Of a stretch of 64,000 nucleotides of DNA, positions 4,649 to 18,152 are shown one piece after another. The notes below the pieces were generated by a model, which worked only from the letters and a program-made list of their open reading frames with translations, was not told the origin of the DNA and did no database searches. This DNA is from a virus. The stretch's first letter is position 1. Every line of letters starts with the position of its first letter. The position numbers and the translations under genes were made by a program. The stretch lies in IMG/VR virus record IMGVR_UViG_3300009000_000003, one strand, 5' to 3'.

Positions 4649-4771
4649 AACCAACAAGTCAACACGACTCATCAGGCAGGTTTCCCTGCTAACAACCATT
4701 TACATGGAAAGCTTCGATTACTCTAAGCTTTTACGTTTTCGACCCCGCCGTAACGGTAGGTCTTGCTGGTT
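4649..4771 (-). ncRNA. Hammerhead ribozyme candidate (permuted), copy A
   Basis: Minus strand reads GACC..GGUC-GAAA-AC..GU-UA/GCAGG-GAAA-CCUGC-CUGAUGA. CUGAUGA is at 4675-4669 and GAAA at 4740-4737. Predicted cut between 4690 and 4689. Outer stem AACCAGCAA/UUGUUGGUU. Confidence 0.72.
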
Positions 4772-4786
4772 AATAGATGAAAGCAG

Positions 4787-5101
4787 TCAAGACCACCATC
4801 TTGACTTTTGTGGCACTGGTTTCTCCAACCAGTGCCGATCATCAATCGGCCACCATTCTGTTATTGGTTGGCGGCCTCCAACTAGTTCAGTTGAGCCTGC
4901 TATTGAGCTTTCAAGATGACTAAAGAAAACCACTTTAATGACTTCAAGCTTGCCGTCGACAAGCTTTGAAACCACTTCATGGTCATTGCTGATTTTTACC
5001 ACGTCGATAAGCTCCCCTTCTTTAATCCCTGTCTCACAGACAGGGCAGTCGGGGTGTTTTAGTTCGTCGTGAGTCGAGCAATAGTTTTTTTTTGCCATCA
5101 T
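4787..5101 (-). CDS. Hypothetical protein with CxxH..CxxC putative Zn site
   Basis: CSTH...CPVC near the N-terminus. Confidence 0.6.
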   Translation of the reverse strand: MMAKKNYCSTHDELKHPDCPVCETGIKEGELIDVVKISNDHEVVSKLVDGKLEVIKVVFFSHLESSIAGSTELVGGRQPITEWWPIDDRHWLEKPVPQKSRWWS

Positions 5102-9147: not shown

Positions 9148-9924
9148 TTAAGAATCATTCCACAGATCACCAAGATCAATTTGAATCTCATCGTCTAAAG
9201 TAGAAACATTGGAATCTGCACCTACAGCAGTATCAGAAACGGGTTCTACTTGAGCCTCAGAATTATCTTTAGGCTCAGAAGCCTTAGCCTCAATAAGCCT
9301 TACATAGATTGCCTTTTTATAAGCAACGCTCTTAAAGAGCCAAAAGCCCTCAGGACTAGTGACGTCTTTGAGTCGAGTAGTAGAAACTGACTCGTAGCCG
9401 TCAGGAACAGTAAAAGCTGTTCCAGCTGGATAAAACAGTGCCATCTTGAGAGGTGCCTTAAGCTGAAGCTTGCGTTTTACAGCATTGCCAAAGCTAGACA
9501 CAACTCTAGCGTTACCAAGCGAATCGTCTACTTGGCAGGATTGCTTAGCCCCAAGTAAAGGAGCAAACACCTGATTGATCCAAGTGTCTTTAACCAAAGT
9601 CCTATCTCCGTCAGCCCTTGCAGGCTCAGAAACCTTTACTGTTGAAGCTTTCTGAGTAGACGGCTTAGAATTCCCTGAGCTCCTACCAGAGCCCTTCTGA
9701 ACCATCTTACCAAAATTCACCACGACATGACTGCCACCAGAAACAGTCACATTCTGCCCAGCTTGAGGGTCTGGAACCTGTGTAGCTAACTGCTCGAGCA
9801 ACGCTGGCGAACCAGCTGCATAAGCAGCTTCAATCATACTAGAATAGCTGGAAGCCACAAGCATCAACTTAGCCTTAGCTGTATCGCTGATGGGAGCTGT
9901 GGCAATCATCATGTAAACATTCAT
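9148..9924 (-). CDS. Hypothetical protein with acidic C-terminal tail, coupled to the polymerase gene
   Basis: ATG at 9924 with GAGGAGG RBS, immediately after the polymerase stop; ends DDEIQIDLGDLWNDS. Confidence 0.75.
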   Translation of the reverse strand: MNVYMMIATAPISDTAKAKLMLVASSYSSMIEAAYAAGSPALLEQLATQVPDPQAGQNVTVSGGSHVVVNFGKMVQKGSGRSSGNSKPSTQKASTVKVSEPARADGDRTLVKDTWINQVFAPLLGAKQSCQVDDSLGNARVVSSFGNAVKRKLQLKAPLKMALFYPAGTAFTVPDGYESVSTTRLKDVTSPEGFWLFKSVAYKKAIYVRLIEAKASEPKDNSEAQVEPVSDTAVGADSNVSTLDDEIQIDLGDLWNDS

Positions 9925-16537: not shown

Positions 16538-17305
16538 TCAGAAAAGGTAATGGGTGTGAAGATCAAAGATTTCTTTGACCTTATTGCCATACCTGTACGC
16601 ACCCATCCCACCGCCATTGTAGCGGTAAAATAAATACGTATCGACCTTCTTCGCTCCCCGTTTCACTGGCTTGAGCCAGTGGTCTGGGTTGTAAAGATCG
16701 ACTTTTTTAAAGTCTCTTTCCAACCCGTTGTACCACCGACTCTCTAGCCAGAGGCGCTGGTACCTAAACGCATTCTCAAACGATGCGTTTAAAGTGGCGC
16801 AAGAGGCAAGGCGCCCTCCTGCGTCCTCACCTCTAGTGTCCACCTGGGTAAGGCCACAGGCTTGGACAGGAGACATGTATATCTCCTTCTCCCACATCTG
16901 ATGGGCAGACTTGACCTTGCCCTGTGAAAGCTTGTGGCTGTGACCCTCACTAAAGCCACACCCTGTCTCTTTGAGACAGAGGGCAAGAGCGAGGCGTTGG
17001 ACTTCGCTTGGGGCATCGCCCCAAACTTCTTGGAATGCTTGAGCTATGCGTTCAAGCCGATCAGGGTATTGCTTAAGGCGCTTAGTCCCCATGGAGGTAG
17101 AACGATAAAAGCTCCTAATAGAAGCCTTTACCCCTGCCTTGACCGCTAACCTCTTAAAGAGGCGGCTCTCCGCCTCCCAAACCCGAGCTGTTTCCAGCTC
17201 AAGCAGGGTAGGTCCCTCTTGCTCAACTAAGAGAGGCTGTACCTCAGTTAAGGTGCAGGCAGAAAGGAAAAGGAAAAGAATTGTTGACATGATGAGCTTA
17301 GTCAT
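16538..17305 (-). CDS. Lipoprotein with lysozyme-like / lytic transglycosylase fold
   Basis: Lipobox FLSAC after a hydrophobic leader; LKET (catalytic Glu candidate), ACGLTQV and YNGG...Y match SLT motifs I-III; ATG at 17305 with GAAGGAG RBS. Confidence 0.65.
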   Translation of the reverse strand: MTKLIMSTILFLFLSACTLTEVQPLLVEQEGPTLLELETARVWEAESRLFKRLAVKAGVKASIRSFYRSTSMGTKRLKQYPDRLERIAQAFQEVWGDAPSEVQRLALALCLKETGCGFSEGHSHKLSQGKVKSAHQMWEKEIYMSPVQACGLTQVDTRGEDAGGRLASCATLNASFENAFRYQRLWLESRWYNGLERDFKKVDLYNPDHWLKPVKRGAKKVDTYLFYRYNGGGMGAYRYGNKVKEIFDLHTHYLF

Positions 17306-17354
17306 TGCGACTGCTCCTTCTGCAGTAAAAGACACTGCGGCTGTTCTGATAAAT

Positions 17355-17470
17355 CCCCTTGATCATCAGGCGAGATTCCTCGCGAGCTTTTACGCAGGGC
17401 CTTGGGCCTCTGCAACCTCCCCTAAGGGAGGTTAGCTTTCGACCAGGACGCTAAGCGCCCTGGTCAGGGG
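17355..17470 (-). ncRNA. Hammerhead ribozyme candidate (permuted), copy B
   Basis: Minus strand reads CCCCU-GACCAGGGCGC-UUA-GCGUCCUGGUC-GAAA-GCU..AGC-UC/GCGAG-GAAU-CUCGC-CUGAUGA-UCA-AGGGG. Predicted cut between 17384 and 17383. Confidence 0.75.
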
Positions 17471-17474
17471 GTGG

Positions 17475-18152
17475 TTAGTCAAACCAATTAGGAATTGGGT
17501 CACCTCTCCAGTCCCAATCCCTAGGGAAAAGAGATTGCGCCATCGACTTGGCGCTGTCATAGCCCATGCGTCGAGCATACTTCTCTTCCTTTCCCAGACT
17601 GAGGGCTTTGAGGAGGCAAATCCAAGCTTCAAAGCCTTTTGGCTCCTGAGGGTTTGGAAATGACAATCCATAACGAATTGCCATCAAAGCCCCCCTCGCC
17701 TCAAGTCTTGAGGCTTTCCAGGAATCGTCATCAATAATGACAATTCCCCTACTCAAGACTTCTTCAAGAAGTCCGGGAAAGGAACAAACCTCCCCTTCTA
17801 GGTCCATCCAGACCTGGTTGATATTAAGGTCTCTGGACCAATAGTAGTCTAGCTCGTACCCTTGTGGGTACACCTCAATGTCAAAGCCTTGGCCTTCGAA
17901 GGCCTCGAGGAGGCTTTGAACCTCTTTGGAAGGCTCGAAAACGAGCTGGCCCCCCAAGGTATAGATCTCCTCGAAATAACTCTCAGGGAGCCACCAGAGG
18001 AAATCCACATCTAGTGGTACCTCCTCATAAGCAAGGTTATGCTTTTTGAAGAAAGCATTCCTTGCTACCCCTCTCTTAAAACCCAAAGTACCAAAAGGCA
18101 CTTTGGGAATATTTGTTGTTGTTGTTGTTGTTGTTGTAATGAAGTAACGCAT
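17475..18152 (-). CDS. Hypothetical protein, first gene of the GC-rich island; N-terminal poly-Thr
   Basis: ATG with GAAAGGA RBS; (ACA)n microsatellite at about 18113-18137. Confidence 0.75.
   Translation of the reverse strand: MRYFITTTTTTTTNIPKVPFGTLGFKRGVARNAFFKKHNLAYEEVPLDVDFLWWLPESYFEEIYTLGGQLVFEPSKEVQSLLEAFEGQGFDIEVYPQGYELDYYWSRDLNINQVWMDLEGEVCSFPGLLEEVLSRGIVIIDDDSWKASRLEARGALMAIRYGLSFPNPQEPKGFEAWICLLKALSLGKEEKYARRMGYDSAKSMAQSLFPRDWDWRGDPIPNWFD

Follow-up and report, generated by a model that had tools for sequence, protein, structure and literature searches.

A candidate hammerhead ribozyme with its chain ends inside the catalytic core, found between the genes of one phage clade

Few small ribozymes have been studied as closely as the hammerhead. 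Its type II form (type-GSC; Rfam family RF02276) occurs in bacteria and prophages with the order GAAA, cleavage site, CUGAnGA, and where such hammerheads cluster in phages, their suggested task is to divide long transcripts into mRNAs the size of genes (Perreault et al. 2011; PMC3088659). Eckert et al. (2023; PMC10085705) distinguish six permutations, three circular and three non-circular (SGC, CSG and GCS; HRIMA-1), on the premise that block C is uninterruptible, insertions of more than 1-2 nt being unknown between A9 and position 10.1. Two described systems depart from the standard form close to this backbone step: in the CChMVd (+) hammerhead an additional nucleotide, A10, is tolerated after A9 and before G10.1 (De la Pena and Flores 2001, according to PMC3705267), and the PK hammerhead (Weinberg et al. 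2015; PMC11300833) has a pseudoknot in the loop of helix II, with A9 contiguous with the G10.1-C11.1 pair.

Here we describe an element, copy B, on the minus strand of a 64,000-nt stretch of IMG/VR virus record IMGVR_UViG_3300009000_000003, the whole of which we call the window. Judged by its sequence and predicted fold, the element has every hammerhead feature that can be tested at this level, but not the stem II connectivity of types I-III or of the non-circular types. We consider it a probable self-cleaving hammerhead with a new connectivity, which would cut an early polycistronic mRNA and then lock itself off.

Fold and connectivity of copy B

Folded without constraint, the segment 17350-17475 reaches a minimum free energy (MFE) of -66.2 kcal/mol (z = -6.45), a stability equalled by 0/200 shuffles, and the MFE structure consists of P0, stem II, a branched stem III and stem I, with the core unpaired (Table 1). 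The sequence-only reading had proposed a second permuted hammerhead here, built of an outer helix, stems I-III, GAAA, CUGAUGA and a CUC triplet; each of these parts lies on the minus strand where that reading had placed it, the MFE fold agrees, and the architecture described for a first copy, copy A, is borne out. The plus strand holds no matching layout, and a ribozyme on the antisense strand was rejected. The junction of stem III contains an A-rich UAAA strand (17393-17389 in copy B, 4733-4729 in copy A), which lies on opposite sides in subtypes A and B and is a possible tertiary docking element.

Table 1. Features of copy B, its surroundings, copy A and the subtypes of homologs (window positions unless a contig is named)
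Feature	Positions or members	Strand	Description and basis
Copy B	17470-17355	minus	fold and sequence
P0, 5' strand	17466..17470	minus	CCCCU; abuts stem II directly; folding, descriptor, covariation
P0, 3' strand	17355..17359	minus	AGGGG; pairs with 17470-17466; folding, descriptor
Stem II	17441..17465	minus	closed 11-bp hairpin; base GACC/GGUC, loop UUA
G*	17465	minus	replaces G10.1; partner of C11.1 (17441), pair probability 1.0
Core G12 A13 A14 A15.1	17437..17440	minus	GAAA; sequence
Stem III	17385..17437	minus	AGCU/AGCU, 4 bp, opened by A15.1-U16.1; folding
Stem III three-way junction	17433-17414, 17413-17394, 17393-17389	minus	two hairpins and unpaired GUAAA; folding
Predicted scissile bond	17383..17384	minus	C17 (17384) / G1.1 (17383), triplet CUC; hammerhead numbering
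Stem I	17370..17383	minus	GCGAG/CUCGC, 5 bp, GAAU loop; folding
Core C3 U4 G5 A6 U7 G8 A9	17363..17369	minus	CUGAUGA; sequence
Linker after A9	17360..17362	minus	UCA, 3 nt; sequence, descriptor
Anti-core strand	17346..17352	minus	UUAUCAG, complement of CUGAUGA; folding, 15-copy comparison
Upstream ORF	17475..18152	minus	225 aa, variable cassette slot; stop 5 nt before P0
Small hairpin and RBS of downstream gene	17314..17338	minus	hairpin 17338-17322, AAGGAG 17319-17314; folding, sequence
Downstream gene	16538..17305	minus	255 aa from ATG 17305; conserved family, lipoprotein-like N-terminus by inspection
Copy A	4649..4771	minus	same layout; P0 4771-4763 with 4657-4649, hairpin P4 4668-4658
Copy A, core parts		minus	G* 4762, GAAA 4740-4737, cut 4690/4689, core 4675-4669
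Subtype A	window copy A, L120-L126, L128		P4 starting with G; 7/15 copies
Subtype B	window copy B, L126/L127, L131, L132 twice, L130:4778		3-nt linker, pyrimidine at 10.1
Subtype D	L130:16023, L149:6597		hairpin P4 starting with C

Every catalytic nucleotide of the hammerhead is kept in copy B. CUGAnGA follows stem I (17369-17363) and is intact in all homologs; GAAA ends in the A15.1-U16.1 pair that opens stem III, which is A-U in 15/15 copies while the remaining pairs of stem III covary; the NUH triplet directly 5' of stem I is CUC in copy B, its H being C or A but never G across the copies; and the G-C pair at the base of stem II is formed by C11.1 with an upstream G, at a probability of 1.0 in copy B and as G-C in 15/15 copies. 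This G*-C11.1 pair would be stacked under A9.G12. The blocks GAAA, site and CUGAUGA stand in the order G-S-C with stems I and III capped, as in type II.

The departure lies in stem II. Position 10.1 of copy B is U, and the contiguous 10.1-11.1 pair has a probability of 0, as against 1.0 for G17465-C11.1. Because 10.1 is U and C11.1 pairs with G17465, each of the three stems is capped and the two ends of the chain come together in P0, between A9 and 10.1; the sequence-only reading had not remarked that such wiring lies beyond the six permutations. Copy B thus does not have the contiguous strand of type II (0-2 nt inserted after A9, open stem II), nor the order of types I and III (C-G-S or S-C-G, with a stem II hairpin between CUGAnGA and GAAA): GAAA occurs only upstream of CUGAUGA, and no second GAAA closes stem II downstream of the core. 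It is also set apart from SGC, CSG and GCS, which have a non-circular order and pseudoknotted stems, by its G-S-C order and by the nesting of all its helices, and from the PK (RAGATH-1-type) hammerhead, which has a helix II loop pseudoknot and A9 contiguous with G10.1. Rfam returned no hammerhead family for copy A or copy B at the gathering threshold or at E <= 10 (181 nt for copy B). Among the B copies, no conserved Watson-Crick kissing pair or pseudoknot connects the loops or stems of I and II.

Homologs, covariation and sister elements

Homologs were sought on contigs encoding relatives of the polymerase of this region or of the 255-aa protein downstream of copy B. A strict descriptor of the layout has 16 matches in 352 kb of related contigs, all of them on the sense (coding) strand of the gene island described below, where the elements lie between genes; the 16.3-kb island, dinucleotide-shuffled 600 times, yielded 0 matches, as did 1.09 Mb of unrelated loci that had in many cases been pre-selected for core motifs. 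Removal of duplicates and the addition of L122:12533 and L120:12019, both placed by hand, gave 16 distinct sequences. Base pairs were counted in 15 tabulated copies of these 16, by script and in structural register because MAFFT misregistered L130B. The proposal that copies A and B are covarying versions of one permuted hammerhead, made from two sequences, is now backed by 16 distinct natural copies.

In the 15-copy set, stem I is paired in 75/75 cells, P0 and stem II in 74/75 each, stem III in 59/60 and P4 in 27/27, with compensatory changes in P0 and stem II. Most helix positions show 3-5 pair types, counts that overstate the number of independent events because the copies are kin (about five lineages). 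The pairs G*-C11.1 and A15.1-U16.1 are invariant across copies, N7 is U or C, and exchanging the P0 strands between subtypes lowers pairing from 4.9 to 1.5 of 5. For the five closest B copies RNAalifold independently recovered the active fold, in which P0 and stem III show compensatory changes; for five A copies it gave an alternative OFF hairpin. Core invariance is partly imposed by the descriptor; searches by BLASTN or with a covariance model, which did not filter for the core, gave 11 homologs, each with an intact core. The linker after A9 is CUA, CCC or UCC in homologs of copy B, and a hairpin, P4, of 3-4 bp in subtypes A and D. A near-identical copy in L126/L127 differs within the core element only by C17->A and an extra C just upstream of P0. 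One homolog of copy A (L120:11830-12055) has a swapped 5' half, with a branched stem II and a three-hairpin stem III, and keeps P0 and the G-C pair at 11.1.

Several relatives (L145-L148, L150-L152) hold no copy. When viral and genome collections were scanned for DNA patterns, without regard to structure, no copy of the layout turned up beyond the phage clade among the matches listed, which are chance matches, three unrelated canonical type II hammerheads and the L130 contig. BLAST against GenBank phages found no match for the RNA or for the polymerase. So far, then, the layout has been seen only in one phage clade.

The same contigs carry other hammerheads. Sister elements in L121 and L130, subtype C, are of type II with a one-pair stem II plus an upstream hairpin, and are weak RF02276 matches (18-26 bits); at L124:9808 (9770-9835), downstream of the polymerase operon and about where L121 has a one-pair type II, lies a canonical type III. 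Subtypes are mixed within single early islands, with six hammerheads in L130 (4277-7445 and 16023) and four in L121 (1719-12273); none of the island hammerheads of these two contigs reaches the Rfam gathering score. At L122:10500-10620, GAAA and CUGAAGA occur together with what may be a 3-bp stem II, though no clear stem I or cleavage site is present; the segment is possibly part of a larger structured RNA. In an unrelated phage, a type II hammerhead (L090:1195) has one extra U between A9 and G10.1, much like CChMVd.

A plausible evolutionary path leads from subtype C to subtype A, in which both registers of stem II are possible, and from there to B and D, in which the new register is fixed. 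The two strand ends of an A-form helix lie about 17-18 A apart, a gap that a 3-nt linker or the end of a short helix could span, which would fit the occurrence of only these two linker types. Subtypes A and D would form a perfect four-way junction, for which stacks of stem II on the core and of P4 on P0 are plausible. The A9-phosphate/G10.1-N7 position is a known metal site, and the invariant upstream G would keep it.

The anti-core strand and a predicted product lock

The segment 17352-17346, just outside 17355-17470 and absent from the sequence-only reading, is complementary to all seven core bases, and in 15/15 copies a downstream segment can pair with CUGAUGA; the 3' product is therefore predicted to lock its core. 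In these predictions C3-A6 are buried in the 3' product of 15/15 copies, as against 8-26% of shuffled tails; the same holds for 6/8 other clade copies tested and for 0/3 unrelated canonical type II hammerheads. The B copies have a linker that covaries with the P0 3' strand and extends the anti-core hairpin, and in subtypes A and D the anti-core is the P0 3' strand itself. The OFF, or product-lock, hairpin and the active fold are mutually exclusive. In longer context, OFF is more stable than ON for copy B by 1.1-1.6 kcal/mol (MFE) or 2-3 kcal/mol (ensemble), values that leave tertiary folding out of the count; among the copies, ON is less stable than the MFE structure by 0-9 kcal/mol. The RBS of the downstream gene is predicted to be partly paired in both states, which does not favour a clear switch at the RBS through cleavage. 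From these folding models we lean, by a little, toward a locking function of the anti-core.

The mechanism that we propose runs as follows. The G of the upstream strand would rebuild the quasi-invariant G10.1-C11.1 pair, and the gap after A9 would be bridged by the 3-nt linker in subtype B or by P4, giving a four-way junction, in A and D. Transcription as far as 17355 would suffice to complete the active fold, at a point where the anti-core (17352-17346) is still to be made, and the RNA would be cut after C17384. The 3' product, bearing a 5'-OH, would refold into stem I and an anti-core hairpin that buries CUGAUGA, a lock that would disfavour re-ligation and leave the downstream mRNA with a structured 5'-OH end; cleavage may be only partial. 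The net job would be to split the early polycistronic transcript of the phage between genes. Catalysis by the element is likely, and processing of mRNA in vivo, its most likely function, is fairly probable. The most inclusive form of the proposal, i.e. an active, core-opened fourth circular permutation with a near-balanced ON/OFF switch and a product lock, whose series within one clade would record its origin, we favour by a narrow margin. Some points speak against the proposal: in CChMVd an inserted C or G at A9/G10.1 is strongly detrimental (PMC3705267), five of the six B linkers are pyrimidine-rich, no tertiary contact between loop I and stem II was identified, OFF has the stability advantage over ON given above, and several relatives hold no copy.

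The OFF hairpin might instead be the working state of an RNA that derives from a hammerhead and cleaves poorly or not at all, serving as a stability element, a nuclease or protein site, or a conditional switch. Such a role would suit an uncut precursor whose OFF fold is equally or slightly more stable, the OFF hairpin that RNAalifold gives for five A copies, and the failure to find a tertiary contact. We nevertheless think it unlikely, since the catalytic bases, the NUH rule, A15.1-U16.1 and the G-C pair at 11.1 are selected while the stems diverge, and since P0, which in subtype B is needed for the ON fold alone, shows compensatory changes.

Less likely again is a degenerate type II element, in which 10.1 (17362) would stand opposite 11.1 in a contiguous stem II. 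Natural type II hammerheads are active with a stem II of one bp, and even with a U10.1-U11.1 mismatch (PMC3088659), the sister elements in L121 and L130 are one-pair type II, and subtype A (7/15) has G10.1, where the junction could branch-migrate by one pair. Contiguous pairing of stem II is found, however, in only 7/15 copies at the first position and 2/15 at the second; copy B and all B and D homologs (8/8) have a pyrimidine, U or C, at 10.1 opposite C11.1, and in these two subtypes a contiguous stem II is impossible. The upstream G, in turn, is invariant in 15/15 copies, pairs with C11.1 at p = 0.93-1.0 in B and D, and is abutted by P0 without a gap in nearly all copies. We accordingly prefer the opened core to a weakened type II stem.

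Genomic setting

The window appears to be a portion of the genome of a large uncultured phage. This genome is AT-rich, but about 16 kb of it (2-18 kb) form a GC-balanced island, which is read on the minus strand. The island encodes four tRNAs and a putative polymerase of 1738 aa that contains a DSDGD motif. Single-sequence AlphaFold gave a pLDDT of 33 for the N-terminus of the polymerase, and PDB sequence searches gave no match. An alignment search with the polymerase found 1 viral and 5 metagenome loci and 0 loci in GTDB genomes; searches for related loci with single proteins gave no match. One of the relatives is a complete 158-kb record.

Copy B had been placed between a stop codon and the next RBS, and so it lies: the upstream ORF stops at 17475, and the P0 end is about 35 nt 5' of AAGGAG, with ATG 17305 beyond (Table 1). 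The 255-aa downstream protein (16538-17305) has no significant Pfam, PHROG or PDB match. It carries invariant KExxCGFSE and RYNG motifs, which we take to be reminiscent of lytic transglycosylases, and in L126/L127 its N-terminus is kept and the remainder swapped. In relatives, copy B also follows unrelated large genes; L131 lacks the gene-plus-B insert before the 255-aa gene and has its B copy at another gene junction, and in L132 the gene beside B is a different one, and B stands between copies of a 9-bp direct repeat, CAACGCTAA, that is also found in the leader. Gene-plus-ribozyme inserts come and go in this cassette slot behind the first leader of the island (window 18185-17475; L131:8780-8930; L132:4574-5900). 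A 104-aa gene just upstream of copy A (window 4787-5101) is missing in the near-identical L126 and L128. Many independent assemblies (L120-L125, L150 and others) are contigs of 14.3-14.8 kb that hold the GC-rich island alone, which could reflect a long terminal repeat, a first-step-transfer region, coverage bias or modified AT-rich DNA.

This arrangement also invites the idea that copies A and B together excise a 12.7-kb RNA, circularised via a chimeric ribozyme and copyable by the island polymerase. The two cuts bracket the polymerase gene of the window, hammerheads lie on both sides in L121 and L130 as well, and the assemblies of many relatives are contigs of about 14.5 kb that contain just the island. 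We hold it to be very improbable. The excised RNA is unsupported because the A-5'/B-3' chimera cannot form P0 and folds core-locked, and because the bracket around the polymerase is not conserved; the number and position of the hammerheads vary, from none to six, L124 has the island start with no upstream copy, and the B copy of L131 sits at a different gene junction. Moreover, in DNA metagenome contigs of relatives the island and the terminase region lie on one continuous sequence.

Finally, a chance match or a terminator-like hairpin cluster, for which the generally hairpin-rich island and the lack of an Rfam match might be cited, is refuted by the covarying homologs and by the zero descriptor matches in shuffled and unrelated DNA, as the sequence-only reading had expected when it called coincidence unlikely.

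Relation to described hammerheads

The core-opened layout was not found described in the hammerhead literature searched, coverage of which was incomplete. The chain ends lie inside the catalytic core, and the list of hammerhead layouts may therefore gain one more member. If the proposed reading is true, a natural family with its ends inside the CUGAnGA block breaks the assumption that this block is uninterruptible, descriptor and Rfam searches miss a ribozyme class, and engineers gain a new attachment point with all three stems capped. The anti-core strand would add a testable idea for what phage intergenic hammerheads do after the cut, namely to make cleavage one-way and to cap the downstream mRNA, which bears on why phages carry hammerheads.

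The closest relative in layout is type II, with which the element shares the G-S-C order, the capped stems I and III, the clustering between variable phage genes and the proposed role in mRNA processing. The two differ in where the chain is open: type II has 10.1 immediately after A9 and its chain ends in an open stem II, whereas the present element forms stem II upstream, as a closed hairpin, and carries its ends in an additional helix between A9 and 10.1. Like SGC, CSG and GCS, the element rewires the hammerhead in nature without loss of any core nucleotide, and in both cases covariation supports the structure; those three reorder intact blocks and are pseudoknotted, whereas here block C itself is broken and the core has no pseudoknot. 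The PK hammerhead likewise has a remodelled helix II region, but A9 is here not contiguous with the 10.1-11.1 pair. Among the nearest precedents, alongside the one-base-pair stem II and the PK hammerhead, is CChMVd, where, according to PMC3705267, an insertion at the same backbone position is compatible with activity; that insertion is one nucleotide in a continuous strand, whereas here a whole helix and both chain ends are inserted.
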